Positions 1 to 53,188 of a stretch of DNA of 64,000 bases are shown here, piece by piece (within the stretch, counting starts at the first letter, position 1; each line of letters opens with the position of its first letter). Below the pieces are notes generated by a model that was given only the letters and a program-made list of their open reading frames with translations, searched no databases and was not told the DNA's origin. Made by a program: the position numbers and the translations under genes. Origin of the DNA: Candidatus Saccharimonadales bacterium (GTDB lineage: Bacteria > Patescibacteriota > Saccharimonadia > Saccharimonadales > SZUA-47); contig JBBQVE010000007.1 in assembly GCA_038211855.1 (NCBI GenBank), positions 53 through 64,052 of the forward strand, read 5' to 3'.

Positions 1-15
1 ACCCTAGCTAACCAA

Positions 16-89
16 TGGGGATTGGCCAAGTGGTAAGGCAATGGATTCTGGTTCCATGATCGGGGGTTCGAATCCCTCATCCCCAGCCA
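16..89 (+). tRNA. tRNA-Gln (anticodon CTG), CCA encoded
   Basis: Hand-folded cloverleaf. Acceptor TGGGGAT/ATCCCCA; anticodon stem ATGGA/TCCAT with loop TTCTGGT; T-arm GGGGG-TTCGAAT-CCCTC; discriminator G plus CCA. Confidence 0.9.
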
Positions 90-129
90 TAAGCATTTTT
101 AAAAATCTCTTATTGTACATAAGTGTGTT

Positions 130-138
130 TGCTATAAT
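130..138 (+). promoter_or_regulatory. Extended -10 (TGCTATAAT) placed 6 nt before the ATG at 145; predicted leaderless transcript
   Basis: TGnTATAAT match. Spacing puts the expected transcription start on the A of the ATG, and there is no Shine-Dalgarno sequence. Confidence 0.45.
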
Positions 139-144
139 AGGCCT

Positions 145-357
145 ATGAATGATGATCAATTATCTGACCTAATGCAGTTTATTTCAGCGACCGTTTCGCA
201 AGTCACTGCAGATATGGCAACAAAAGATGATATTGCTATGCTTGGGAATAAAATAGATGATATTGAACTAAAAGTCGATACTATATCTGAAACCCTCAAT
301 GACCAACTCAATCAACATGAGGTCAGAATTAATAAGCTAGAGCAACAAACTATATAG
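145..357 (+). CDS. Hypothetical 70-aa coiled-coil protein (cassette 1 cargo)
   Basis: Intact ORF with heptad-like acidic/leucine pattern. No recognisable family. Confidence 0.5.
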   Translation: MNDDQLSDLMQFISATVSQVTADMATKDDIAMLGNKIDDIELKVDTISETLNDQLNQHEVRINKLEQQTI

Positions 358-387
358 TTAACACACTACTTGTAAGGTTGAAAAAAT

Positions 388-421
388 ATTGCGAAGTACG
401 ACCACTAGCCACAGCCATGCC
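388..421 (+). repeat. Cassette-end repeat R1 (ATTGCGAAGTACGACCACTAGCCACAGCCATGCC)
   Basis: Hand alignment gives 25/29 identity to R5 over the core. It shares the CGAAGTAC...CCAC.AG...CAGCCA blocks with R2 and R5. Confidence 0.75.
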
Positions 422-444
422 ATTGATATACTATTGTTTGTATT

Positions 445-1053
445 ATGATGACGAAGAAAAAAAATAATAAAATTAAATCATCACGTAAATTTGTTATTTT
501 AGCCAGTTCTATATTATTGCTATCTCTGTTATTGGTCGTTGTTTTATACAGCAGTAGACGAAAAGGCGTTACAGAAACAGGCCCTGCAGTTTCTGGACAG
601 TCAGGTAACTCAAAAGACTATGCATTGACTCAGACAATTACAGCAACGAGAGATATCTTTCGCAATACCTACAAGAACACTCCCGCAGATTATGATAATA
701 GTAGTGTGGTTATAAAAGATATGAAACTGAGCTTTCCAAAATCTGACACATATTCGATTGGCTACTGGATTAGTGCTAAAGTAGATGGTTTAGCCGTAGG
801 GGCATCAGTTACTGATTTAAAAACGGTGGACAAACTACTCAACGAAGGTTCAAAGCCATCCGTTCAAAAAATATTTAACTGCTTCGAAGGCCTCGCTGTG
901 TTTGCGTCACAACAGCCGTCTGGCTACCAGACTTTTTTTCAAAAGAAACTCAAAGATGGTCGTTTTTACGAAATTAGACAGATAAAAAAAGAGTGCACAG
1001 TATTAATCGGAGATTTTACTGATTATTTGTCAAAAGCTGAATCTGTCGATTAA
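445..1053 (+). CDS. Hypothetical N-terminally membrane-anchored protein (cassette 2 cargo)
   Basis: Lys-rich N-terminus followed by a hydrophobic helix (FVILASSILLLSLLLVVVLY). No recognisable family. Confidence 0.6.
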   Translation: MMTKKKNNKIKSSRKFVILASSILLLSLLLVVVLYSSRRKGVTETGPAVSGQSGNSKDYALTQTITATRDIFRNTYKNTPADYDNSSVVIKDMKLSFPKSDTYSIGYWISAKVDGLAVGASVTDLKTVDKLLNEGSKPSVQKIFNCFEGLAVFASQQPSGYQTFFQKKLKDGRFYEIRQIKKECTVLIGDFTDYLSKAESVD

Positions 1054-1094
1054 GTTTGTTAGGCCGAAAGTTAATAATACTTCCACTTTTGCGG

Positions 1095-1142
1095 ATTCTT
1101 AAAAGTTCGAAGTACGTCCACTAGACCCAGCCAAGCATAAGC
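1095..1142 (+). repeat. Cassette-end repeat R2 (ATTCTTAAAAGTTCGAAGTACGTCCACTAGACCCAGCCAAGCATAAGC)
   Basis: 34/39 identical to R5 with no gaps. It shares GTTCGAA and CCCAGCCA blocks with the 3' half of tRNA-Gln. Confidence 0.8.
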
Positions 1143-1146
1143 ACAA

Positions 1147-1175
1147 TACCTTCAGAAATGTCTGAAGGTATTTTT
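1147..1175 (+). terminator. Rho-independent terminator
   Basis: Perfect 10-bp stem TACCTTCAGA/TCTGAAGGTA with loop AATG, followed by TTTTT. Confidence 0.75.
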
Positions 1176-1193
1176 ATTTGCAATAGTTAAATT

Positions 1194-1418
1194 ATGACAA
1201 TAAACAATAAGTACAGTTTAATCTCTTTAGTTGCACTCGTTTTTAGTCTTGTCATATTCTAACTTATACATAGTTCTGGTTTAACTGGAATATTACTATT
1301 TGTATTAATAATTTCATCTTTTCTGCTGTTTGGAGCATCTATCTATTTAGCGATTAGTTCGTTTACTAAAAATCCTAAAAAAACATTCAAAAGACTCATT
1401 CTTCTAGATTTTTTCTAG
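1194..1418 (+). pseudogene. Small two-helix membrane protein gene interrupted by an in-frame TAA at 1260 (cassette 3 cargo)
   Basis: Translation reads MTINNKYSLISLVALVFSLVIF*LIHSSGLTGILLFVLIISSFLLFGASIYLAISSFTKNPKK... The hydrophobic reading frame continues across the stop. Confidence 0.4.
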
Positions 1419-1443
1419 GGTTTGTTAAGGTAATAACTAACTC

Positions 1444-1481
1444 TAAAGTTTGAAGTGTGTCCACTCGCACAAGCCATTACC
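1444..1481 (+). repeat. Cassette-end repeat R3 (degenerate)
   Basis: AAAGTTTGAAGTGTGTCCACTCGCACAAGCCATTACC; 25/33 identical to R2 by hand alignment. Confidence 0.6.
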
Positions 1482-1554
1482 TCTTCGAAACATCACTTAT
1501 GCATATTGATGCAGTGATGCGTTTATGGTACAATGTTACTCATAGGAGAAAACT

Positions 1555-1773
1555 ATGCGTACGACTATCACCATAAATGACAAACTCTTGAGGACATTGA
1601 AGCTTCGTGCAGCAGAAGCTGACACAAGTGTCTCTGCAATAGTAGAAGACGCTGTCAAATATCAAATTCTCGAAGATTTTGAAGATATTGAAGATGCCCA
1701 GAAGCGGGTTAACGAGCCACAATATTCTTTTAATGATCTTGTAAAATTATATAAGGCAGAAGGTCTTATATAG
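1555..1773 (+). CDS. Type II antitoxin, ribbon-helix-helix (CopG/RelB-like)
   Basis: N-terminal RTTITINDKLLRTLKLRAAEADTSVSAIVEDAV matches the strand-helix-helix pattern. AGGAG Shine-Dalgarno sequence. Located 2 nt upstream of the toxin gene. Confidence 0.8.
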   Translation: MRTTITINDKLLRTLKLRAAEADTSVSAIVEDAVKYQILEDFEDIEDAQKRVNEPQYSFNDLVKLYKAEGLI

Positions 1774-1775
1774 AT

Positions 1776-2048
1776 ATGCCTCAGGACATATATCAACTAG
1801 AATACAAAAAGTCAGTCGATAAAGATCTAAGAAAACTCTCACCTGTTATAAGGGATCAAATCATAAGTAAAATTCTAAAACTTTCTGTTCAACCTTATCC
1901 ATCAGGAAATACTAAACTTCGAGGGTCTACCAACCTTTATCGCATACGACACACGAGTTATAGAATTATATATGAAGTGAATGGCAACAAACTTATAGTA
2001 CTGGTCATCAAAGTTGGGCACCGAAAAGAAGTATACAGAGACATTTAA
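1776..2048 (+). CDS. Type II toxin, RelE/ParE family
   Basis: 90 aa with LYRIRHTSYRIIYEVNGNKLIVLVIKVGHRKEVY, typical of the RelE/ParE C-terminal core. Confidence 0.85.
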   Translation: MPQDIYQLEYKKSVDKDLRKLSPVIRDQIISKILKLSVQPYPSGNTKLRGSTNLYRIRHTSYRIIYEVNGNKLIVLVIKVGHRKEVYRDI

Positions 2049-2063
2049 CAGAATATTTAAGGT

Positions 2064-2096
2064 AGTTCAAATTCCTATGCGCCAGCCATCATGCTC
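2064..2096 (+). repeat. Cassette-end repeat R4 (colinear degenerate copy of the tRNA-Gln T-arm/acceptor 3' half)
   Basis: GGTAGTTCAAATTCCTATGCGCCAGCCAT versus tRNA GGGGGTTCGAATCCCTCATCCCCAGCCAT; 21/29 identical, ungapped. Confidence 0.65.
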
Positions 2097-2130
2097 ATGC
2101 TTAAAGATTTTTTCGGAAGTGTTTTAAATT

Positions 2131-2139
2131 TGATACTAT
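2131..2139 (+). promoter_or_regulatory. Extended -10 (TGATACTAT) 6 nt before the ATG at 2146; predicted leaderless
   Basis: TGn plus TACTAT, then AAAATA, then ATG. No Shine-Dalgarno sequence. Confidence 0.4.
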
Positions 2140-2145
2140 AAAATA

Positions 2146-2955
2146 ATGGAAAATACTATTGGCTTCATCGGACTGGGTAATATGGGCGCTGGAATGGCTA
2201 GGAACTTAGTTAGTTCAGGCTGTTCAGTCATTGGCTTCGATTTAGATTATGAGAAACATAACGCACTCGTAGCTGATGGATATAAAAAAGCTGAGAATAT
2301 CAACGAGATTACTAATAATTGTGAAAAAGTAATTTTATGCCTTCCACATCCAGATGCTACACAACATGTTATATTTGATGGCTTACTCGTCAAGGACACT
2401 TTCGTAAAGACAATTATCGAGACTAGCACTCTTACGCCCGAAATTGTTGTAGATCTATCAGAAAAGTTAGCTGCAATGAACACGAAATTCTTAAGCGCTC
2501 CTATGATTGGTGGTAAAAATTCGGCAATCAATAAAACCATTCAATTCTTGGTCGAAGGCGAACCAAGTCTTTACGATGAAACATTATATCTATTTAAGGC
2601 CATGGGTAAACAAGCAGCCTATGTAGGTAGGGCACCGTCTGCAACTTTAGCAAAGCTTGCTTTTAATTTGTCGAGGTATGCGAATTTGGCGGCTGGAATA
2701 GAAATCTACAGATTATTACAAGCTTATGGTGCAAATAAAGAAGCTATCTATACATTCATGAGCGAACAATCTCTGGATAACTTTGGCCAAGTTTGGAAAG
2801 AAGATCTAAAAGACACTATGACTGAAGATACCCCCTTTAAGCCGAGTCAAGTTCCAAGGAAAGATTTGGAACTATTAGCTAAGATGGCCGATGAACATAA
2901 CTTGAGCAAAGATCTAATAAAAGCTATACGCAATACATATCTTTCTATGGAATAG
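2146..2955 (+). CDS. NAD(P)-dependent oxidoreductase, 3-hydroxyisobutyrate/6-phosphogluconate dehydrogenase-like (cassette 5 cargo)
   Basis: N-terminal Rossmann motif IGFIGLGNMGAGMARNL. Length and layout fit the beta-hydroxyacid dehydrogenase family. Confidence 0.75.
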   Translation: MENTIGFIGLGNMGAGMARNLVSSGCSVIGFDLDYEKHNALVADGYKKAENINEITNNCEKVILCLPHPDATQHVIFDGLLVKDTFVKTIIETSTLTPEIVVDLSEKLAAMNTKFLSAPMIGGKNSAINKTIQFLVEGEPSLYDETLYLFKAMGKQAAYVGRAPSATLAKLAFNLSRYANLAAGIEIYRLLQAYGANKEAIYTFMSEQSLDNFGQVWKEDLKDTMTEDTPFKPSQVPRKDLELLAKMADEHNLSKDLIKAIRNTYLSME

Positions 2956-2965
2956 CAGCAGGCAC

Positions 2966-3010
2966 ATTCTTAAAATTGCGAAGTACATCCACGAGCCCCA
3001 GCCATAAGAT
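2966..3010 (+). repeat. Cassette-end repeat R5 (ATTCTTAAAATTGCGAAGTACATCCACGAGCCCCAGCCATAAGAT)
   Basis: 34/39 identical to R2. It ends in CAGCCATAAG, as does the junction between the tRNA 3' end and its flank (CAGCCATAAGC). Confidence 0.8.
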
Positions 3011-3170
3011 ATTCGAACTAGGTTCATATATGTAGCCTTGCTGGTATTAACCATACTAGGTATTTGCCAGTCATTCTGATTTGTCGTTTGGATATATTAA
3101 AATAACCACTTTCAGATTGTTGCTGCTACAATCATAGCGTAATTACTAAGCCTATAGAGCTAACAACCTC

Positions 3171-3179
3171 TGTTATAAT
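3171..3179 (+). promoter_or_regulatory. Extended -10 (TGTTATAAT) 6 nt before the ATG at 3186; predicted leaderless
   Basis: TGnTATAAT, then GGCTTT, then ATG. Confidence 0.45.
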
Positions 3180-3185
3180 GGCTTT

Positions 3186-3437
3186 ATGGCTATGACTAAT
3201 CAATCGCAAAAAACAATCAGCAAAGTTCAAGGTCGCATTACTCGGCATAAAAAAGTTCGTTATCATAACGATGCCGCTCTGTTTCCTGACAGTGTCAAAA
3301 CTTGTTTGGTGTGTAATAAATCATTCGAAAATCGAAAACGGTGGGCATCACGAAGTAGCTTTGCTTATGTTAAATATTGTTCTAGACGATGTCGTCGTAA
3401 CGCTCGTAGTCTAGGCATTAGTGAAGCTTCGAAGTGA
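3186..3437 (+). CDS. DUF2256-type small zinc-ribbon protein
   Basis: KTCLVCNKSFENRKRWASRSSFAYVKYCSRRCRRN matches the recalled DUF2256 pattern (C..C...RKKW...V.YCS..C). Its stop overlaps the start of the next gene (GTGA). Confidence 0.7.
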   Translation: MAMTNQSQKTISKVQGRITRHKKVRYHNDAALFPDSVKTCLVCNKSFENRKRWASRSSFAYVKYCSRRCRRNARSLGISEASK

Positions 3438-4882
3438 AAGCTGTGCTGATACTGGGTAACCAGCTGCTAGAACATCACCCAGCATTGGCTGATGATAGCG
3501 TCGATGTGATTATCATGATCGAAGCTCAGGATTTGTGCCTAAAATTACCTTACCATAGCCATAAACTGGTGCTCTTATTATCTGCGATGCGACATTATTG
3601 CACTCAGCTTGAAAAAACTGATAAAAAAATAATTTACGCGACACTTAGCCAAACACCATACTTCATTCAATCGCTAAAAAGAATTATCTCGGAAAATAAT
3701 ATCAATGCACTGTTGTGGATGAAATCATCTGACGCCACTCCAAATAAAATACTAGCCGAACTTACGAAAATTTTAAAGATTGACCACGAAATCTATCCGA
3801 ATGAAATGTTCCTAACGCCAGAATCTGAGCTTCTAGATTGGTTCGATCGACAAAAAGCACCTCTAATGGAAAATTTTTATCACTGGCAACGTCAACGGAC
3901 CGGTATTTTGATGGTGGATAGTAAACCCGTGGGTGGGCGATGGAATTACGATGCCGACAATCGCCGGGCACTTCCTAAAAATGGCCTAACAATACCTGCG
4001 GTAGTATTCCCGGTTCACGATGTTATCACTAAGCAAGTGATCAATGATGTACAAGTCTACTTCCCGACTCATCCTGGTACAGCAAACGATTTTTGGTTGC
4101 CTGTCAGCCACACTGAGGCTGCTCGGTGGCTAAGGTCATTCATCAACGAACGATTTTCACAGTTCGGTCCATACGAGGATGCAATGAAAGCCGGTGAATC
4201 ATTTTTGTTTCACAGCGTGCTATCCCCACTGATTAACTGCGGTTTATTGTCTGTTCAGCAGGTTTTAGATGCTGCGCTGAATGCCTACGAATCTCAGCAT
4301 ATTGAGATCGAATCAGTAGAGGGCTTCATTCGTCAGCTGATCGGTTGGCGCGAGTATATGTACGGATTGTACCTAAGCGAACCTACTATGATGGCGGAAA
4401 ACTATTTTGGCTTTAACAAACAACTAGAGGATTGGTGGTATAGCGCTGACTGCTTAAACCAAGATTTGCCAATACCACTACTAAACGCGCTTCGTACGGT
4501 TCATGCCTACGGCTACAATCATCATATTGAACGATTGATGATTTTGGGTAACTGGTTCTTGTTGAATGAATACGACCCAAAGTCAGTCTACCGTTGGTTC
4601 TCTTCGATGTACGTAGATGCATACGAATGGGTGATGGTACCGAACGTGATTGGTATGAGTCAGTACGCAGATGGTGGCCGAACGGCAACCAAACCATACA
4701 TTTCAGGAGGCAATTACTTACAAAAAATGGGTCGCTGGTGGCCGAATGCTGCACAAGCTAAAGACAGTCAATTTACATCTTTATATTGGCAATTCTTGCA
4801 AAATAATTATGATAAATTACAATTGAATTTTCGAATGTCGTTGGTGCTAAAGCAAGCCGCCTTACGTATGAAACAAGATTGA
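3434..4882 (+). CDS. Cryptochrome/photolyase-related protein (FeS-BCP / (6-4) photolyase-like family)
   Basis: N-terminus KAVLILGNQL; GYNHHIERLMILGN; VDAYEWVMVPNVIGMSQYADGG..TKPYISGGNYL. These are typical of the PhrB/CryB-type family and its usual DUF2256 neighbour. Confidence 0.8.
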   Translation: MKAVLILGNQLLEHHPALADDSVDVIIMIEAQDLCLKLPYHSHKLVLLLSAMRHYCTQLEKTDKKIIYATLSQTPYFIQSLKRIISENNINALLWMKSSDATPNKILAELTKILKIDHEIYPNEMFLTPESELLDWFDRQKAPLMENFYHWQRQRTGILMVDSKPVGGRWNYDADNRRALPKNGLTIPAVVFPVHDVITKQVINDVQVYFPTHPGTANDFWLPVSHTEAARWLRSFINERFSQFGPYEDAMKAGESFLFHSVLSPLINCGLLSVQQVLDAALNAYESQHIEIESVEGFIRQLIGWREYMYGLYLSEPTMMAENYFGFNKQLEDWWYSADCLNQDLPIPLLNALRTVHAYGYNHHIERLMILGNWFLLNEYDPKSVYRWFSSMYVDAYEWVMVPNVIGMSQYADGGRTATKPYISGGNYLQKMGRWWPNAAQAKDSQFTSLYWQFLQNNYDKLQLNFRMSLVLKQAALRMKQD

Positions 4883-5719
4883 AAACTTAATTGTTCCGCA
4901 GCTCTTGATACGCCACTACGTCGTATCTGCGCATCAAGCCTCCTTCGTTCATGCCAAGTCCGATTGTGCAGTCCAACCATCGACCATAAAATGCCGACGT
5001 AGCCATTAAGGTCCCCCCCATCTATTGAGTAAGCATCTTATGAAATTGAACCTGACAAAGCTTATGCAAGTTCAGTCTTGTTATTCAATAGTCGTATAGC
5101 AGTAGTTGTCGCCTTATTTCTTGGTTTATCTGTTTTCTTCCATTTCTTGGTAGTGTATCTTGGTTCTTTAAGAGATATTCGACTTCATTAAAGAATCATA
5201 TATACGTTTTTCGTCGGGTAGAATATTCACTTAATTCGTCGTCAATGATTTATCTAATTGCTCAGCTTGATGGTATAAGACTAATAGCTGCACTTATCGC
5301 TATAGTTGGCATTAACGTATCGATGTTTTTTTGGTTGTATTGCTGGAGTAATTCCGTGGTTATTAGTAGTGTTATACATTGACACACCAAAAGCGCCAAG
5401 CACTGATCATGATCCTGGATTTGTGCATAAAATAGTAATATCTTTGTTTCTTTTTTTAATTGTTTTGCAATTGTTCAATATATTCAATACCAAGCCAAGA
5501 TCAAATGGGCCAATTACTTACGAAGCGAAAAGGCATATACTATTTTTAGTTTTACTGCTAAATCAGCTCTAACATGGCAATTATTTGCAAGCATACTAGC
5601 ATCTTCAAAGTAAGTTGCAAGATGTTACTTTAAACAAAAACATTATCTATTGACTGTGGCTTAATGTCTGGAAATAAATTCTTTGCCAAATCATTCGTAA
5701 CAACCATTGGGTTTGCCAA

Positions 5720-6511
5720 TTATTCTACCATTGCTCTCCCAACTTTAGCGTGTTTTTTTGGAGTAAATAAATTTAGCCACCATGCAGATACTGCCACTGG
5801 AATTATGGTTACAGTAATTAGTATAGCTTTAGTTTTCTTCCACTTTGCATAACGTTCCATGACTTCCTTATACGACATCGGTTCAGGACCGCCAATTTCA
5901 ACTATCAAGTCTTCTTCATTTTTTAAATCTATGGCCTCAATGAGATAAGAGAGTGCGTCATGTAGGCCAATTGGCTGCGTTAGCGTTTTAGACCATTTAG
6001 GTATTGTTAGAATTGGTAATCTATGTACTAAATTAGTGATTATTTCGTATGCGATACTGCCCTTACCTATTACCATTGATGCTCTAAATTCAATTGTTTG
6101 ATATATTTCAGATTTTAATAATTGACCAGTCTTGTGTCTACTAGCTAAATGTTTAGATAATTTATCTTTATCATCTCCTAGTCCTCCTAAATAAATAACT
6201 CGTTTTACTTCAGCATTCTCGGCTGCTTTACGAAAAGAAATTGCCGCATTTGATTCAGCTATTACGAAATCAACCTTTTTCTGACCCATCATATGAATTA
6301 AGTAATATACCAGAGTACATCCTTCTAGATGCAACGCCAAGCTATTAGTGTTAAAAACATCAACATCATATTTAGTTAATCTTTGATTGTTTATCGGGAT
6401 ACTGCTAGCGTCTCTAGAAATCCCTATTAGCTCGTGGTTGGTATCAGTAAGTAAACGATTAATGAGATTGTGCCCTATAAAACCGTTTGCACCTATTATG
6501 GCTATTTTCAT
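5720..6511 (-). CDS. NAD(P)H-binding atypical SDR / NmrA-like protein
   Basis: MKIAIIGANGFIGHNLINRL glycine-rich dinucleotide-binding motif. GGAGAA Shine-Dalgarno sequence upstream. Confidence 0.7.
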   Translation of the reverse strand: MKIAIIGANGFIGHNLINRLLTDTNHELIGISRDASSIPINNQRLTKYDVDVFNTNSLALHLEGCTLVYYLIHMMGQKKVDFVIAESNAAISFRKAAENAEVKRVIYLGGLGDDKDKLSKHLASRHKTGQLLKSEIYQTIEFRASMVIGKGSIAYEIITNLVHRLPILTIPKWSKTLTQPIGLHDALSYLIEAIDLKNEEDLIVEIGGPEPMSYKEVMERYAKWKKTKAILITVTIIPVAVSAWWLNLFTPKKHAKVGRAMVE

Positions 6512-6565
6512 GTTCTCCAGTATGCAACAAATTTATTATATGCACTAGCATTTCATTAAAAGCTA

Positions 6566-6942
6566 TTAATATATTTGATTTGCTTCAACCAAAAACGGCC
6601 TAATTATTAATATGCCTGGTTTCTGAATACCCGAGCCATTAATCAGTGAGCGCAATGTTCTTCGATCAACGAGTGTGCAGTTATTAGATTGTGCAAGTAA
6701 TCGTGCAGATCTACTAAAAACGCTATTAGTAATGACTACTACTTTTATACATCTATAGTGTGGTAGAGCAGTGACGCCCTGCCGTACTGCATCGGCACCA
6801 AGCAAGCCCTGTATAGTTTGCCTTGAATACCGTATACCATTCCGTATCGCTCAGCGATAATATCTATACCAAGGTCGTACTTTTCTGTAAGGTGAACATT
6901 CTTATAGCCATGTATCCGAAGCAAACCAACTAGATGGTGCAC
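6566..6942 (-). pseudogene. Mrr-type restriction endonuclease catalytic domain, split by a frameshift
   Basis: Two overlapping ORFs in different frames. Together they read ...GYKNVHLTEKYDLGIDIIAERYGMVYGIQGK.Y... then ...GADAVRQ...CIKVVVITNSVFSRSARLLAQSNNCTLVDRRTL. This fits the Mrr_cat pattern D-GIDiia...QcK...ft..A...L.D. Confidence 0.6.
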
Positions 6943-7166
6943 AAATTATAGCCCTATCATGTCGTCTACACAGCAGACATATTTTTACGCCATTTGAGTA
7001 TGGAAAATGGGTATGCTCATAGTCATTCCAAATTTTTGATAACCGGGGGCACTAAAAAATGTTGTTAAATATGCAACTTAACAGATGTATCGTGATCTGA
7101 GTCATACTACTGATAAACCGTTATAATTGTTATGCTAATTAGTAAGAACCTCAGTTATTCTTGGCT

Positions 7167-7481
7167 ATGAGAGAAGAAGATTACTATAAGCACTACCGTC
7201 GTGAGTATGCCACTCTGCACAGAGAGCGTTTTAGACCGACCACTCAGCACAATCCCCAACCCCAACAAGTACCAGCACCACAACTGCATTCAAACCCAAA
7301 CAAACGAAAAGTTCACACTATTGGCGAACTCCTTACTAAAAAATCCCTTATTCCCCGCAGTTTTAGATTGGCATACTGGGATTTTAAAGCTTACCGCCGA
7401 AGGCATCGCTGGGCTGTCAGGGCTATTAGCGTAGTATTAGTTATCGTTTTACTTGCGGGAATTTTTTTTATAGGTTATTAA
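7167..7481 (+). CDS. Hypothetical basic protein with a C-terminal transmembrane tail anchor
   Basis: Arg/Pro/Gln-rich N-terminus with a single terminal helix AISVVLVIVLLAGIFFIGY. Lies directly upstream of the giant ORF. A TTG at 7161 is an alternative start. Confidence 0.5.
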   Translation: MREEDYYKHYRREYATLHRERFRPTTQHNPQPQQVPAPQLHSNPNKRKVHTIGELLTKKSLIPRSFRLAYWDFKAYRRRHRWAVRAISVVLVIVLLAGIFFIGY

Positions 7482-7518
7482 TGCGCATAAGCATACGGTT
7501 GAATATTCACTTGATGGT

Positions 7519-10500
7519 ATGACGGATTCACTTATTGGCAAACCAAATGTGAAATACGCGAATAAGCTAAAATTTAATCCGAAAAACTCGACCTACAACT
7601 ATAACGAGGGGTTTTCAGCAGCTAAAACTGATTTAAGTGGACCAACGAGTTCGCCAAAATTCACTGCACAGTTTGGTGACGGAAAAGAATACACCGCAAA
7701 AGTTACCGACGTCATAAATGATGTGAGTGTTTCTTTTCAGCCTAAGTTTCAACTTTACATGCCACGCCAAGACGCAAATCGAGTTGTATACCCACTGGTC
7801 GGTCTAGATGCAGTAAAAGTCTACACACTTGGTGCAAGTGCCGCAAAAGACGACATTGTACTGCGTAGTTTTCAAGGTGACGAGCTACGCTTTGACTACA
7901 ATCTCATCCTGTCTAGTGGTCTAGAACCTCGAATTGAGACCGACGGTTCACTTGGTGTTTACGGCCCTGCGGCTGCACTACTTGGAAACGTCACTACAAC
8001 GACCGATACTGATGCGAAGCTTTTGGAAAATGCACGTCAAAATGCCAAAAAGGATCGGATCATTTTTACGGTACCTGCTCCGTTTATTGTTGAATCAGGC
8101 AAAAAGACAACGAGCGCCAAGGCTTGGTTCACGTTGGATGGCAAGACACTAAGCGTGCATGCGTCTCGACTCAAAAGTGCGACCTATCCACTTAGCATTG
8201 ACCCAAGTGTGTACATCGAAACAGCGGCGAAGTTCATGCGTGGCAATAATGAGAGCAATATAGATTTTGATGTTACGAATGAACTAATTCAAAAAAGCCA
8301 TACGACGGGTGCCCGTATTGATAATTGGACGGGCACAATTTCTCAGGCGTATAGCACGTGGGATCAAGGCACAGCTGTCGCTGGTGGTTACATATATTCG
8401 GTAGGTGGTCAGCAAGTTTATAGTAAAACGTATACAACGGTTGGCGCCGACACATTTGTAGTTCCTGCTGGAGTTACTAATGTCACTGTAAAAATGTGGG
8501 GTGGAGGCGGTGGATCGGCCGCAGGTGCTGCGTCTGCCGCAGGAGGTAATGGCGGTGGCAGTGGCAATGCAACGGGCATAATTAGTGTATCGGCAGGAGA
8601 AACACTCAATGTATATGTCGGTGACGGTGGCGGTGGCGGTATTTATAGTGCAGGTGGTAGTGATGCCGGTGGCGGTGGCGGTGGACATACAAGTATTATT
8701 AGAAGCTCAACGCCTCTCATAATTGCAGCCGGTGGCGGTGGCGGTGGCGGTGCACGTGCAGCACTTGGTGGTGGCGGTGGTGACACAACAAGTGGCGTTA
8801 CGGGTACATCGGTAGGTAACGGTCACGGTGGCGGTGGCGGTACCGCTAGTGCAGGAGGCACCGCTGGAACTGGTGGCAACAACAACGGAAGTAACGGAGG
8901 CTCACTTTTAGGTGGTGCTGGTGCTGATGGACGTAGCTCACAAGGCACCGACGGCTCAGGGGCATCGGGGGGATTACCTACAGGAGGAGCTGGAGGATTG
9001 GCAAACGTAAACACAACTCGAGCCGGTGCGGGTGGTGGTGGCAGTGGTTATTATGGTGGCGGCGGCGGAGGGGCTTCGAGCAGTACAGGCACGGCTGCTG
9101 GTGGTGGAGGCGGAGGCGGTTCGAGCTATATAGCTGCAGGTGCAACAGCGCCTTCTTCAACCGCTGGCTCTGGTACAACACCGGGGAATTCGAGTGATTC
9201 AGTACGTGGTACCGCAGGTGATGGCGCAACCGGAGCTGCAGCACTTACTGATGGTACCACCGGAAAAAGCGGCTTCGTTTTAGTCACGTATTCTATATCT
9301 GGAAATTCATCAGTAACGACTGCGAGCGTCTATTGGGCGCAGTTTAATGCAACGACAAACGCCATACAAAGCCCTAATCCGGGTAATGGAATATGCTCAG
9401 GGTGGTGTACCAACAGTGTGTACGATCTGCCAGAAGCGAGGCGTGGATTTTCACTTGTCGCCTACAATGGATTTTTATATGCCATGGGTGGATTAAATGA
9501 TACGGGAACACGCCGGTCTACTGTATATATTGCTAAAATCGGTGCTAACGGAGAGCCGCAGCTTTGGCACCCATCTGGAGGCACTCCTGTCTTTTGGTAT
9601 ACAGATAGCGGCCTTAATGGCGCAACAGCGCGAAGTTACTTTGCTGCTGCCGCTTACAACAATCGCATGTACGTACTTGGTGGGCAAACAAACGCCAGCT
9701 CCGGCGGAGTAATGACGGTAGTTGAAGCAGACATTAGCCCGACTGGCGCCCTGGGTAGCTGGACGGCGACTGGTATGCAGGCACTCCCTTCGGCCCGGCA
9801 TAGCCATACAGTAGAAATTTATAACGATACAATGTATATTCTTGGAGGAAATTCGTCTGGAACGCTCCAAAATACCACGTATTACTCCAAAATTAACAAC
9901 GATGGGACCATGAATGCGTGGGTGCAAACTGAAAACTTCGCTACAGCGCGCAGCACTATGGGTTCCAGTTATTCGACAATTTGGGGGGCGTACATGTATA
10001 TGGCCGGCGGTTGTACTGCGGTGAATGGGAGTGGTTATTGTACAGGCATAGCCTCGGATGTACAACTTGCAAGTATAAATGCAGATGGGAGTCTGTCTGA
10101 GTGGAATACCGTATTAGGACTCACGAACGACCGAATTGGTCACAGCCTGCTTGCCTGGCAAAATGGACTCTATCGAGTAGGTGGCTGCTCGTCTCAAGAT
10201 GGGACGACTGGGCTTTGCACCAACCCTTCTTCATCAATAGATTATGGTGTTATTAACAAAGATGGTGAAGCAAGTACGGTGGCCAACTCAGTCTCAAGTG
10301 GTACAGCGCCATGTTCGGGTGCTAGTCCTCATAATTGTGAGCTACCGAGTGTCTCTATTATCGGAAATGTACTCAGCGGTAGCGCTATCTTCAACGGCTA
10401 TTTGTATGTGTGGGGTGGGTGTTCAAATACGACATCAGGTTGTGGCACAGTTTCGAGTGGAGTGATCTATACATCTATAGGGAGTGATGGTTCGCTCACC

Positions 10501-12915
10501 AAGCCAGCTTCGTGCGGTTCATGGTCGACCGTAGACTCGTATTGCTACAACGCAACTTCCCTGCCTGGGTCTGTTGGCGCGCCCGGAGTTGCCGTCTTTA
10601 ATGGTACTATTTATTCTGTTGGTGGCTTTACGGCGGCCGGTAGCGTGAATAAGATATATTATGCACAACCTAGTGCAACCGACGGTTCAATTAGTTCATG
10701 GAGTAGTGTTATTTTAAGTAGCGGTGCTGGCAATATAGGCGCCGAAGATGTTGCCTATACCTATAGTTTTGCGAGGGCTAATCCAGCATCTGTTGGCAGC
10801 ACGCCCGGTAATCTATATATCTTAGGCGGTTGTACCGGCTCAGCTGGGATAGGCTGTAGTGGTTATACAGGCGGCGTTTATAAGTGCACAATCAGTACAT
10901 CCGGCGTTCCGGCGGCATGTAGCCAGAATCCTAGTGGCTCAAATCAACAGTTACAGATTGGCTCTGTCACAGATGGATTCGGGCACTCTGCTGGTACTGG
11001 ATTGGGTGCAATGGCCGGCACACTCTATGCTAATTATATCTACCTCATAGGCGGGTTATCGTCGAATGCAACATACGGTCTCGATTTGAAAGTTTCGCGC
11101 TATGCAAAAATAGACAACAACAATAATATTGTGGCTGTGAGTGGTAGCGCCTGGATAGAATCATCGAACCTCACATACTATGGTCGGCGGCGTGGTTCGG
11201 GGTTTGGCTATAATGGGTACCTCTATGTTGTTGGTGGATATGATGGGTCAAGCGGTGGCGGAGGCATTTTGGCCGATATCGAGTTTGCAAAAATTGATGT
11301 GAGCGATGGCAGCATTGGTGCATGGAAAGTTTCTACAGTTAATATCAATCAACGCTGGGGGCTAAATCTCACAGTTTCTAATTCTTACGCCTACGTTATT
11401 GGTGGCTGCATTACTGGTAACGCACCGACCTGCTCCAGTGGTGGCCAGACTAATTCCATACAAACCTTTCAGGTCTACAACAATGATAGTGGTGCAATTA
11501 AGAATATCACCGCTGGGAATTCACTTGGCGTTAATAGAATTGGTGGGAGCTCAACAGTGATGAATGGCTATATTTACTATGCAGGCGGTTGTACCGACAT
11601 GGCTTGTACGACTCCATCGACGGCAACGTACTATGCGCCTATTGATGCTTATGGTGTAGTCGGCTCTTGGTCTTCCGGTGGCACACTGCCAACAGCTGTC
11701 TCATGGGGTAAGCTCGTCAACGCCGGCGGCACTCTTTACTACGCGGGCGGCCAAACTGGAGCATCCAATGCCACCGCTGTAAGTACTATATATTTCACCT
11801 CAGCAGTCACCTCAGGGAATCCTACGTGGAACGGTACAGCAGCTACAAAGGGTATCGGAGATACTGGAAGCGGCGCGCAAACACGTACCGAATTTGGAGT
11901 CGCAACGTGGAATGATCGAATATATGTTACGGGAGGGTTTAGCTCGAGTGGTGCTGCACAATCTAGTGTCTTCTCAAGCGCCTCACTCGCGGCAGGTGGC
12001 AATATCACAGCTAACTGGACTTCTACTACTGGATTTAATTTTGCCCGTGGCGGCCACACAACAATCGCGTATGCTAATAATCTGTATTTACTCGGCGGCT
12101 TTGACGGTACAAACTATTTAAATAACGTACAGTACACCCAAATTAATGGTGATGGTACCGTTGATGCATGGACATACACAACGAGCCTCGATGGACCTAT
12201 CCGTGATGCTGATGGATTTGCTGCGAACGGCTACATGTACCTTGTTGGTGGGCGTTCAGCCGCTACCACATGCGCGCCAAATACATTCATTGCACCTATT
12301 AGCGCAAATACGACCATAGCGACAGGTAACAATCCAACAGGAATAGGTGAATGGTTCGAAACAAACGTTCGCTACACGGGCGACAGATTCGGGGCTGCAG
12401 TGTCTTATTCAAACGGTCGACTCATCCTTATAGGTGGGGGCTGTACTAGCTTTGTGAGTTCCGGTGACAGAATGTACTATTCAACGCTTAAATCTCAGCC
12501 ACAAATAGCAAAATACTCTCGACTCATAGATACCGATAAGGATGTGTTCCCAACCTACTGGCTCATGAATGGGCTCGACAATTCGACGGGTGCTGAATGG
12601 TACATGCGTTACAGATCATCGACAGAATCTGCTGCATCCTGGGGCCAAGAAACTAATTTTGGAAAGGTGACACTTGGCACCCCTGAAACTTACAATACGC
12701 TCGATGGGAGCGGCACCAATACAAACTTTGCTCGCTACTACTACCTATCAGTTAATATCGATAGCTCGCAGGCATTCGGCTATCCAGAAGATGTAACGAG
12801 AGGCCCGACCATCGATGACCTGACTCTTTTCTACACCAGTAATCCTTCTGGCCGGCTTCATCATGGCAAGACATTTACAGGGGGTATCCAACAGCCTTTC
12901 GATACGCCATTTTAA
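7519..12915 (+). CDS. Giant (1798 aa) protein with a glycine-rich domain and multiple Kelch beta-propellers; putative surface/adhesion protein
   Basis: Uninterrupted 5.4-kb ORF. Gly-rich block at about aa 312-594 (VVPAGVTNVTVKMWGGGGGS...TLNVYVGDGGGGG...GFVLVTYS). There are 17-18 Kelch-like blades (YNGFLYAMGG, YNNRMYVLGG, YNDTMYILGG, FNGYLYVWGG, YNGYLYVVGG, WNDRIYVTGG, ANGYMYLVGG and others). Confidence 0.85.
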   Translation: MTDSLIGKPNVKYANKLKFNPKNSTYNYNEGFSAAKTDLSGPTSSPKFTAQFGDGKEYTAKVTDVINDVSVSFQPKFQLYMPRQDANRVVYPLVGLDAVKVYTLGASAAKDDIVLRSFQGDELRFDYNLILSSGLEPRIETDGSLGVYGPAAALLGNVTTTTDTDAKLLENARQNAKKDRIIFTVPAPFIVESGKKTTSAKAWFTLDGKTLSVHASRLKSATYPLSIDPSVYIETAAKFMRGNNESNIDFDVTNELIQKSHTTGARIDNWTGTISQAYSTWDQGTAVAGGYIYSVGGQQVYSKTYTTVGADTFVVPAGVTNVTVKMWGGGGGSAAGAASAAGGNGGGSGNATGIISVSAGETLNVYVGDGGGGGIYSAGGSDAGGGGGGHTSIIRSSTPLIIAAGGGGGGGARAALGGGGGDTTSGVTGTSVGNGHGGGGGTASAGGTAGTGGNNNGSNGGSLLGGAGADGRSSQGTDGSGASGGLPTGGAGGLANVNTTRAGAGGGGSGYYGGGGGGASSSTGTAAGGGGGGGSSYIAAGATAPSSTAGSGTTPGNSSDSVRGTAGDGATGAAALTDGTTGKSGFVLVTYSISGNSSVTTASVYWAQFNATTNAIQSPNPGNGICSGWCTNSVYDLPEARRGFSLVAYNGFLYAMGGLNDTGTRRSTVYIAKIGANGEPQLWHPSGGTPVFWYTDSGLNGATARSYFAAAAYNNRMYVLGGQTNASSGGVMTVVEADISPTGALGSWTATGMQALPSARHSHTVEIYNDTMYILGGNSSGTLQNTTYYSKINNDGTMNAWVQTENFATARSTMGSSYSTIWGAYMYMAGGCTAVNGSGYCTGIASDVQLASINADGSLSEWNTVLGLTNDRIGHSLLAWQNGLYRVGGCSSQDGTTGLCTNPSSSIDYGVINKDGEASTVANSVSSGTAPCSGASPHNCELPSVSIIGNVLSGSAIFNGYLYVWGGCSNTTSGCGTVSSGVIYTSIGSDGSLTKPASCGSWSTVDSYCYNATSLPGSVGAPGVAVFNGTIYSVGGFTAAGSVNKIYYAQPSATDGSISSWSSVILSSGAGNIGAEDVAYTYSFARANPASVGSTPGNLYILGGCTGSAGIGCSGYTGGVYKCTISTSGVPAACSQNPSGSNQQLQIGSVTDGFGHSAGTGLGAMAGTLYANYIYLIGGLSSNATYGLDLKVSRYAKIDNNNNIVAVSGSAWIESSNLTYYGRRRGSGFGYNGYLYVVGGYDGSSGGGGILADIEFAKIDVSDGSIGAWKVSTVNINQRWGLNLTVSNSYAYVIGGCITGNAPTCSSGGQTNSIQTFQVYNNDSGAIKNITAGNSLGVNRIGGSSTVMNGYIYYAGGCTDMACTTPSTATYYAPIDAYGVVGSWSSGGTLPTAVSWGKLVNAGGTLYYAGGQTGASNATAVSTIYFTSAVTSGNPTWNGTAATKGIGDTGSGAQTRTEFGVATWNDRIYVTGGFSSSGAAQSSVFSSASLAAGGNITANWTSTTGFNFARGGHTTIAYANNLYLLGGFDGTNYLNNVQYTQINGDGTVDAWTYTTSLDGPIRDADGFAANGYMYLVGGRSAATTCAPNTFIAPISANTTIATGNNPTGIGEWFETNVRYTGDRFGAAVSYSNGRLILIGGGCTSFVSSGDRMYYSTLKSQPQIAKYSRLIDTDKDVFPTYWLMNGLDNSTGAEWYMRYRSSTESAASWGQETNFGKVTLGTPETYNTLDGSGTNTNFARYYYLSVNIDSSQAFGYPEDVTRGPTIDDLTLFYTSNPSGRLHHGKTFTGGIQQPFDTPF

Positions 12916-52217: not shown

Positions 52218-52301
52218 TGGTGCGCGGAAGAGGACTTGAACCTCCACACCTTGCGGCACTTGCCCCTCAGACAAGCGTGTCTACCATTCCACCATCCGCG
52301 C
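52218..52301 (-). tRNA. tRNA-Leu (anticodon GAG), long variable arm, CCA encoded
   Basis: The reverse complement folds as follows: acceptor GCGCGGA/TCCGCGC, anticodon loop CTGAGGG, variable arm, T-arm GGAGG-TTCAAGT-CCTCT. Confidence 0.9.
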
Positions 52302-52349: not shown

Positions 52350-53006
52350 TTAGTAGCTACGAAAAATAGCACGCGACCAGCCTGTAAGTTTATAAAAAAG
52401 ATTTGTATCCAGAACATATATATCAAATACCCCATAAGGGAGTGAATTCTTATATGGATGAGGCAATGGCGTGACTCGTTTGTACGATTTAAAAAACTGC
52501 CTTGCCCTAATCGAGCTTACTCGCGCCCAATACTCTTGAGCCGCCTGCTCATCTAGATGATCATGAATATGAATGTGACCTCTGAATTTTTCCTCTGGTA
52601 CGTTACATACTCTACGAAAGAAAGCCATCATGATTCTTATCATTTCTGGGTCTCCATTACTAAAACGGACTAATCGTCTTGTTTTACCTCCTTCAGCCTG
52701 ATATAACATTACCCCTATAAGATGGAGCTCTTTTAGGCTTATTTTACCTATATCTTCGCCAGCGTTATTAATGACGAGATTACGTTTAACTAGCTCGTTC
52801 TTGAGCCTACTTGTTCTCCTTCTTTCGACTGTTTGTAATGAATAAGTGTTCTCTTTCAATTTTAATTGCAGTTCTTCGCTAATCTCTACATCCCTTACCC
52901 ATGTACTGACACTGGATTTAGCAACGCGAAGTATACTTGCGATCTCACCAATTGATTTACCCTCAGCCCTTAGTAGAATAGCTTTTTGATGTTCAGAAAT
53001 TTTCAT
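52350..53006 (-). CDS. HTH-domain protein with a LAGLIDADG-like endonuclease-type domain
   Basis: N-terminal HTH (ILLRAEGKSIGEIASILRVAKSSVSTWV). The central LIGVMLYQAEGGK...RFSNGDPEMIRIMMAFF resembles single-motif LAGLIDADG proteins. Confidence 0.45.
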   Translation of the reverse strand: MKISEHQKAILLRAEGKSIGEIASILRVAKSSVSTWVRDVEISEELQLKLKENTYSLQTVERRRTSRLKNELVKRNLVINNAGEDIGKISLKELHLIGVMLYQAEGGKTRRLVRFSNGDPEMIRIMMAFFRRVCNVPEEKFRGHIHIHDHLDEQAAQEYWARVSSIRARQFFKSYKRVTPLPHPYKNSLPYGVFDIYVLDTNLFYKLTGWSRAIFRSY

Positions 53007-53111: not shown

Positions 53112-53188
53112 GGGCGCTTAGCTCAGTTGGCTAGAGCATCTGCTTTACACGCAGAGGGTCGGGGGTTCGAGCCCCTCAGCGCCCACCA
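53112..53188 (+). tRNA. tRNA-Val (anticodon TAC), CCA encoded
   Basis: Acceptor GGGCGCT/AGCGCCC, anticodon stem TCTGC/GCAGA with loop TTTACAC, T-loop TTCGAGC. Confidence 0.9.

Follow-up and report, generated by a model that had tools for sequence, protein, structure and literature searches.

A variable, integron-like array of small gene cassettes beside tRNA-Gln in a Saccharibacteria genome

In integrons and in clusters of attC sites lacking integron-integrases (CALINs), small and functionally unrelated cassettes, mostly with a single open reading frame (ORF), lie in one orientation, each with one site 3′ of its ORF; toxin-antitoxin cassettes occur among them, no integrase is found inside the cassettes, and close relatives with conserved flanks differ in their cassettes. 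Here we describe a locus with all of these features in a stretch of DNA from a Candidatus Saccharimonadales bacterium (GCA_038211855.1, contig JBBQVE010000007.1), referred to below as the window, by which the whole 64,000 nucleotides analysed are meant. Directly downstream of a tRNA-Gln(CTG) gene, positions 90-3004 hold five cassettes, and on balance we favour, with moderate confidence, the view that they form a hypervariable, integron-like and integrase-less array whose cassettes would be exchanged by a recombinase acting in trans.

The resemblance to integrons is one of layout. Integron attC sites are structure-defined palindromic hairpins, whereas the sites of the array are conserved in sequence, unstructured and apparently derived from a tRNA, and their GTTCGAA block does not, by inspection, fit the GTTRRRY core. 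The anchor is a tRNA gene rather than an attI site beside intI, no IntI-type integrase was found among the scanned ORFs of the window, and the cassettes, unlike those of integrons, seem to bring promoters, and in many cases terminators, of their own.

Several other described systems come close in different respects. Tycheposons of Prochlorococcus usually bring an integrase and other mobility genes with them, and genuine partial copies of the tRNA stand between one element and the next (bioRxiv 10.1101/2020.12.28.424599). With these elements and with the ssrA islands of Dehalococcoides (PMC3146451), the array shares a position at a tRNA-type 3′ end with presumed outward displacement, direct repeats related to the tRNA end between elements, and a flexible island in a streamlined genome; it differs in that its units are an order of magnitude smaller (0.3-1.3 kb) and usually single-gene, in that it holds neither an integrase nor an integrase fragment, and in that its repeat is a derived one, with a 5-nt insert, conserved across genomes. 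Cis-mobilizable elements (CIMEs) and the accretion-mobilization of streptococcal integrative and conjugative elements (ICEs) likewise provide att-flanked, integrase-less elements in tandem at a tRNA-type site, where the integrase of a related element is presumed to act. CIMEs, however, are decayed ICEs or integrative and mobilizable elements that share the att of their helper, whereas the phage helper candidates considered below carry a tRNA-type att, and the elements of the array are far smaller and more numerous. Xer-dependent pdif modules of Acinetobacter plasmids combine small cargo, often toxin-antitoxin pairs, with short conserved sites and a host recombinase that moves them in trans, but pdif are plasmid-borne 28-bp XerC/XerD sites with a dyad and alternating orientation, whereas the sites of the array are direct repeats, chromosomal and anchored at a tRNA; in addition, the inverted 11-bp arms around a 6-bp centre of Xer modules (pdif and integrative mobile elements exploiting Xer, IMEX) are not seen, by eye, in the consensus of 26 sites. 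Unlike IS200/IS605-type and other HUH transposons, the array has no hairpin at its conserved right end, and the window has no Y1_Tnp gene, which was seen only on an unrelated contig (L004; contigs used for comparison are denoted by L and a number).

Cassette replacement between conserved flanks

The locus comprises the following features.

16-89, plus strand: tRNA-Gln(CTG), the anchor of the array (ARAGORN; Rfam, 62.4 bits), with the 3′ end GGTTCGAATCCCTCATCCCCAGCCA.
90-417, plus strand: cassette 1, with a TGnTATAAT-type promoter-like site at about 125-135, a 70-amino-acid ORF without a Pfam match (145-357) and the terminal site R1 (383-417).
418-1133, plus strand: cassette 2, with an N-terminally anchored ORF of 202 amino acids (445-1053) and the terminal site R2 (1097-1133).
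1133-1172, plus strand: junction module after R2, consisting of the 11-mer AAGCATAAGCA (1133-1143) and then a terminator-like hairpin (1145-1172).
1134-1476, plus strand: cassette 3, with a small membrane ORF of 74 codons that contains a single in-frame TAA (1194-1418) and the terminal site R3 (1439-1476).
1477-2089, plus strand: cassette 4, with a promoter-like site found by promoter scan (1506-1534), a ribbon-helix-helix antitoxin (1555-1773; RHH_1, 3.4e-6), a ParE toxin (1776-2048; ParE_toxin, 9.3e-13) and the terminal site R4 (2065-2089).
2090-3004, plus strand: cassette 5, with an inverted 11-mer (2092-2102), a dehydrogenase of 269 amino acids (2146-2955; Pfam NAD_binding_2, 1.3e-34) and the terminal site R5 (2968-3004).
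3005-3094, no strand: non-conserved spacer between the last site and the right flank; homology with contig L005 resumes at window position 3095.
3095-4882, plus strand: conserved right flank, with DUF2256 (3186-3437) and the photolyase-related DPRP gene (3434-4882), both assigned by Pfam.

A tRNA-Gln followed by five co-oriented units had been proposed in an earlier, sequence-only reading of this DNA; the ARAGORN and Rfam calls and the repeat search bear this out, and the ORF listing and Pfam agree with the cargo that it described. The units measure 328-915 nt, four of them ending in one repeat family and cassette 4 in a tRNA-like variant. They are AT-rich, as had been stated, with a GC fraction of 0.29-0.38 against 0.46-0.50 for most of the window; over the first 8 kb as a whole the GC content is 36-40%, and over most of the remainder 46-50%. 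Matches to the cassette proteins were obtained only on short Logan contigs, and exact-protein look-ups with the DPRP and LeuRS proteins of the window gave no match. The window belongs to a Saccharibacteria chromosome: its tRNA-Gln agrees at all 74 nt with the one in a Candidatus Saccharibacteria metagenome-assembled genome (MAG; contig L003), and close homologues of the DPRP protein carry a Saccharibacteria annotation.

The comparison that bears most directly on exchange, and of the kind that the earlier reading had called for, is with L005, a 166-kb ENA contig whose DPRP protein is 87% identical to that of the window. Its gene order is tRNA-Gln(CTG), three cassettes, DUF2256 and DPRP, and its cassettes, each followed by the same repeat, encode a 124-amino-acid membrane protein, a P-loop kinase of 187 amino acids and a 127-amino-acid ORF, all unrelated to the five of the window. 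By blastn, homology between the two contigs at this locus is limited to the tRNA and the right flank (84.8% nucleotide identity over 3095-3533), and between these, over roughly 3.0 kb of the window and 2.1 kb of L005, the repeats are all that is shared. The cassettes have been replaced between conserved flanks; far from being a conserved and syntenic block, the region carries different cassettes in the two genomes. Contigs L006/L007 and L019 encode DPRP proteins of 79-81% identity and have no tRNA-Gln within reach of DPRP (none within 10 kb in L006/L007), and they are therefore uninformative on the presence or absence of an array.

Arrays of the same kind recur in metagenomes. A degenerate site pattern, fitted to five of eight known copies and scanned against metagenomes, retrieved six JGI metagenome contigs with at least two sites each. 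Two of these start at tRNA-Gln(CTG), which is followed by two sites in L008 and by eight in L012, and further contigs carry eight (L013) and four (L010); in the window, L005, L008 and L012 the array begins directly 3′ of the tRNA. Taken over six arrays, 29 inter-site units were counted, 64-1310 nt long and with a median of 488 nt. An ORF of 30 amino acids or more is present in 25 of them, and in every one of these the longest ORF lies on the tRNA strand; the site starts at about -10 to +90 nt relative to the stop codon. One cassette, encoding a 128-amino-acid DUF1801 protein, recurs in three arrays (L011, L012 and L013; 70-75% nucleotide identity), each time among other neighbours; what is shared comprises the hairpin, promoter and ORF and, in L012 and L013, the cassette's own terminal site. 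The replacement of all cassettes in L005, the six contigs and the DUF1801 cassette together uphold the earlier proposal of a variable array of discrete cassettes at a tRNA attachment locus.

Sequence at the left ends of cassettes is often shared as well. The 11-mer AAGCATAAGCA, in either orientation and with or without the hairpin, often lies 3′ of the CCA of the tRNA or of cassette sites at the junctions of L005-L013; in many cases the next elements are a hairpin of terminator type and a promoter-like element of TGnTATAAT type. The conserved junction module extends up to about 100 bp and is common to unrelated cassettes: the hairpin AAAATGACGAG..CGTCATTTT, for example, stands upstream of the DUF1801 gene and also of an LMWPc gene. 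Sequence directly after the tRNA resembles these cassette left ends. In its form TGCTTATGCTT(GCAA), the 11-mer may double as a -35 region, and cassettes appear to carry their own promoters. A cassette can thus be pictured as a putative self-contained expression unit made up of an optional 11-mer and hairpin, a promoter-like element, an ORF or toxin-antitoxin pair, and an unstructured site. As a genome-wide uptake sequence the 11-mer was rejected, since the 64 kb contain only six matches when a single mismatch is allowed, and two of the six belong to the array.

The terminal site and its relation to the tRNA-Gln 3′ end

R1, R2, R3 and R5 form a direct-repeat family (379-417, 1095-1133, 1438-1476 and 2966-3004) with 69-87% identity to R2; R2 and R5, previously counted by hand as 34/39 identical, are 87% identical over 39 nt when computed. 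R4 was detected separately, as an ungapped 25-nt match (2065-2089) to tRNA positions 66-90 at 76% identity, in line with its description as an ungapped tRNA copy, and the junction that had been said to recur, CAGCCATAAG, is found at 83-92 and again at 2998-3007. A profile built from the four window copies and run against all 64 kb scored them at E = 3e-11 to 5e-10 and detected no further copy in the window beyond the array. Since the next best match had E = 0.7, the repeat stands well clear of chance and does not, within the window, represent a motif of intergenic DNA in general.

A consensus drawn from 26 canonical sites on eight contigs reads AAAAGTTCGAA-N5-TCCACTAGCCCCAGCCA, about 33 bp in length. 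Conservation amounts to 85-100% over the 17-nt core and likewise over GAA, and the flanking positions fall to a background of about 35-45%. The 5-nt spacer is variable, chiefly an alternation of purines and pyrimidines (GTACG, ACACA, ATATA), and tends to be array-specific, with GTACG in the window and L010 and ACACA or ATATA in L012 and L013.

The tRNA end that aligns to the site is GGGGGTTCGAA-TCCCTCATCCCCAGCCA, so that the site corresponds to the T-loop-to-CCA segment of the tRNA with a 5-nt insertion and a few fixed substitutions. In the MAFFT alignment, R1, R2, R3 and R5 match the tRNA 3′ end with a single 5-nt gap, whereas R4 keeps the tRNA spacing, as do a few sites elsewhere. Read against tRNA-Gln, the site consists of GTTCGAA, the 5-nt insert and then a segment in which 13 of 17 bases are equal, ending in CCCCAGCCA, the exact block that site and tRNA end have in common. 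Across the 26 sites the core is always TCCACTAG..., never the TCCCTCAT... of the tRNA, and this derived state is common to all arrays, even where the resident tRNA has diverged (in L008 it is 84% identical). It follows that the sites share a common descent and travel with cassettes, and that they did not arise as separate duplications of each host's tRNA end. The site itself probably derives from the tRNA-Gln 3′ end by the 5-nt insertion, to judge from the alignment. The earlier description of the repeats as tRNA-3′-end-like thus stands as regards the relationship and needs correction in one respect: R1, R2, R3 and R5 are not plain copies and have a distinct conserved sequence with an insertion.

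The site has no recognizable structure. Both strands of R1, R2, R3 and R5, folded as single-stranded DNA, behave like shuffled sequence (z -0.58 to +1.43), and attC-like folding was rejected on this ground. Because the site forms no hairpin, the array is not an integron; the comparison with integrons made at first sight holds for the layout and does not extend to family membership, with no hairpin and no intI found. A search of positions 1-3600 against Rfam, even at E of 10 or below, returned only the tRNA. At the junction, TTATGCTTAAA resembles a XerD arm and is without a matching inverted arm.

Proposed mode of exchange and competing explanations

In the favoured scheme, a free cassette circle would carry one site, and a recombinase encoded elsewhere, on a phage or at another chromosomal position, would exchange strands in or just 3′ of the shared CCCCAGCCA. 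Because the tRNA and the cassettes always keep their own 3′ ends, exchange with the tRNA is placed in or to the right of this block. The tRNA would be left intact, the new cassette would land beside it and older cassettes would be displaced outward, while excision or site-by-site recombination could lead to loss or reshuffling of units. Circle insertion of this kind would fit the anatomy of the array, the sequences at the post-tRNA junction and the comparative data, although the circular intermediate, the position of the crossover and a recombinase acting in trans, of whatever type and identity, are at this stage what we infer.

Phages show that the tRNA is a target of integration in this clade. 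The exact 25-nt 3′ end of tRNA-Gln occurs as a partial tRNA in two IMG/VR phage contigs; L014 has an exact copy at 1125-1149, and in L015 (8393-9394) a tyrosine integrase of 280 amino acids (8393-9235; PF00589, E = 2.8e-39) adjoins the partial tRNA-Gln. The same layout of integrase and partial tRNA-Gln half is found in L017/L018 (10001-11160) and L023-L028, and homologues of the integrase with 40-100% identity lie on further contigs, mostly phage-like among those read. The integrases of this family are Xer-like proteins of 278-285 amino acids, and the tRNA-Gln 3′ half beside them measures 32-41 nt, with no full tRNA; it is presumably the attP for the Saccharibacteria tRNA-Gln(CTG). Since an integrase lies beside an exact partial tRNA-Gln, tRNA-Gln(CTG) is a genuine attachment site in the clade, and a compatible recombinase family probably exists in the ecosystem.

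A number of results weigh against exchange by a recombinase in trans. No recombinase family matched the window ORFs (nearly all non-overlapping ones of at least 120 amino acids) or the decayed fragments at 4.9-7.5 kb. The array contigs yielded none either, nor did the 7.5 kb that precede the tRNA in L005 or the unknown ORFs of L005, L006 and L013; L006 has a truncated large serine recombinase fragment without the catalytic domain. With three tRNA-Gln phage integrases as queries, tblastn likewise detected no integrase gene, intact or decayed, either in the window or in the array loci. The phage sites have the sequence of the tRNA itself. The cassette-type site does not occur in the fetched phage loci with a tRNA-Gln integrase, had no matches in an exact-pattern scan of IMG/VR and was not found by BLAST in phage and plasmid collections. 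The 5-nt insert alters the spacing relative to the phage attP/attB and therefore argues against a simple hijack of the phage integrase. The consensus of the 26 sites, judged by eye rather than with a formal Xer-site model, has no dyad symmetry, and with neither dyad nor hairpin the site does not point to the core of either a tyrosine or a serine recombinase. Near-identical sites stand upstream of the DUF1801 gene behind different genes in L011 and L012, which leaves room for more than one crossover position. Finally, no circular form, empty site or insertion or deletion within a population was seen in the sequences examined. The absence of a recombinase among the cassette cargo of any array agrees with the earlier statement that the cassettes carry no integrase, which the scanned ORFs of the window had already borne out.

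Saccharibacteria are naturally competent, and cassettes might be exchanged with no dedicated recombinase at all if the 50-100-bp junction modules served as homology arms for RecA after natural transformation. This would account for the lack of a recombinase near the arrays, for modules that reach beyond the 33-bp site and are common to unrelated cassettes (as with the hairpin of DUF1801 and LMWPc), and for array-specific spacers, which homogenisation within a genome is expected to produce. It is nonetheless an unlikely explanation: stretches of 33-50 bp are at the low end for efficient RecA recombination, and neither the tRNA-3′-end origin and the anchoring at a phage attB nor the strict co-orientation and the layout of one site per gene would be explained.

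Equally, the array could be the fossil of serial integrations at tRNA-Gln by phages or islands with their own integrase, each reduced by deletion to a ‘moron’ and an att copy and all now immobile. The tRNA-Gln is indeed the attachment site of an integrase-bearing phage family, and these phages hold variable small genes beside int and attP, with genes of 91 and 99 amino acids just upstream of int in L024-L027 and not in L023. Some remains could also be read in this way, since the tRNA spacing persists in R4 and a few other sites and some window cassettes look decayed, as in the stop-interrupted ORF of cassette 3. Classical integration would, however, leave the true tRNA 3′ half GATCGGGGGTTCGAATCCCTCATCCCCAGCCA each time, whereas the 26 sites on eight contigs share AAAAG in place of GGGGG, the 5-nt insert and CACTAG. 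No integrase fragment was found by tblastn in any array, the units are uniformly single-gene and co-oriented, and one cassette is present in different arrays, all of which makes such accretion improbable.

The remaining proposal, that the repeat is a locally duplicated RNA element of the 3′-untranslated region or terminator (a tRNA-acceptor mimic, for example) with no role in DNA recombination, draws on its position just 3′ of the stop codon, often just 5′ of a terminator hairpin, and on its tRNA-like end ...CCCCAGCCA, but it is very improbable in view of the lack of any Rfam match at E of 10 or below, of folding no better than shuffled sequence (as single-stranded DNA), of the absence of the site after all other genes of the 64-kb window, and of the cassette replacement between conserved flanks and exclusive link to tRNA-Gln that it leaves unexplained.

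With exchange by a recombinase in trans as the preferred reading, a broader one can be put forward more tentatively: the arrays may represent an independent, dedicated gene-capture platform of Saccharibacteria and the Candidate Phyla Radiation (CPR), anchored at tRNA-Gln on the chromosome, with promoter-bearing single-gene cassettes, a dedicated double-stranded site of about 33-50 bp that would have evolved from the tRNA 3′ end through a 5-bp insertion, and a recombinase encoded elsewhere that would add, remove and reorder the cassettes, in functional parallel to integrons and with an origin of its own. No description of such arrays in Saccharibacteria, Patescibacteria or CPR was found in the searchable literature. 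Genomes of Saccharibacteria and other CPR bacteria are about 1 Mb in size, and how these organisms gain adaptive genes is poorly understood; the present results point to one defined hotspot of single-gene swapping, which is retained in several lineages and in different habitats. Should a recombinase acting in trans be confirmed, the array would be an analogue of integrons that arose independently from a tRNA attachment site, its short, unstructured and well-defined recombination site would possibly be useful for CPR genetic tools, and how streamlined episymbionts keep a flexible gene pool would become testable. Through a dedicated platform, such reduced genomes would gain access to pilins that vary, to genes for defence and for small enzymes, and to toxin-antitoxin pairs.

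Cargo, related loci and the rest of the window

Beyond the window, the arrays encode two type IV pilin-like proteins with an N_methyl motif, at 313-954 and 3045-3707 (minus strand) of L012, and an OLD-family nuclease of the AAA/TOPRIM type, at 10734-12533 (minus strand) of L013, which suggests that they supply surface and defence variation. Their other cargo comprises an HD phosphohydrolase, a GyrI-like protein, a kinase and many unknowns.

The 202-amino-acid protein of cassette 2 has a single homologue among the sequences found, at 51% identity, on L004 (Logan SRR22388031). There the gene is flanked on both sides by a different direct repeat of about 35 nt, GTTCTGACGGTGCTAATC.C.TGCACCAAA (3631-3668 and 4293-4340); CCATAAGCAC and a terminator come after the downstream copy, and no tRNA lies nearby. 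Possibly this is a comparable cassette system that uses sites of a different specificity. L004 is a Saccharibacteria-like contig with adjoining rplL/rplJ; it carries the Y1_Tnp gene, similar to transposases associated with repetitive extragenic palindromes (RAYT-like), at 1682-2320, and at least seven copies of a REP-like repeat, TGAGGTGAGACCTTCCAA, surround this gene (2323-4618).

On L006/L007 (1-7400, 14390-14990), single cassette-type sites follow an EamA-like gene and the LMWPc gene, the latter also preceded by a degenerate site and a DUF1801-type hairpin; a reverse transcriptase (RVT_1), NYN, Mrr and the truncated large serine recombinase lie near these sites. When genome contigs were scanned for a 52-nt pattern from tRNA-Gln, a single further MAG contig came up, L003, which ends 255 nt after the tRNA and contains, within 1-255 (minus strand), a terminator and GGTTCAAATCCTATG, which is R4-like. 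The Logan contigs of the source sample (SRR19962015), L001 and L002, cover the locus from window position 65, where L001 begins inside the tRNA T-arm, and leave a gap at 1294-1328, within the stop-interrupted ORF of cassette 3. Assemblies thus appear to break at the array locus, so that metagenome-assembled genomes probably contain fewer such arrays than exist.

The rest of the window consists of core genes, among them those for LeuRS, LigA, TrmD, S16, RNase III, NusB, Ddl and UvrC. Just beyond the right flank, 4883-7500 shows gene decay, with a heliorhodopsin fragment at 5306-5572 (PF18761, 1.4e-9) and two Mrr restriction-endonuclease fragments at 6566-6942 on the minus strand. Heliorhodopsin is intact in L005, and a DNA photolyase gene directly follows DPRP in L005, L006 and L019, where no ORF is left in the window. 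Positions 7519-12915 hold an ORF of 1798 amino acids in which Gly-rich tracts are long and a segment of YxxGG type is repeated many times, without an NCBIfam match; its GC fraction (0.49-0.52) and GC skew exceed those of the surroundings. At 52350-53006, on the minus strand, a 218-amino-acid protein whose only recognized part is an N-terminal transposase-type helix-turn-helix (HTH_23/HTH_28) is encoded between tRNA-Leu (52218-52301) and tRNA-Val (53112-53188).

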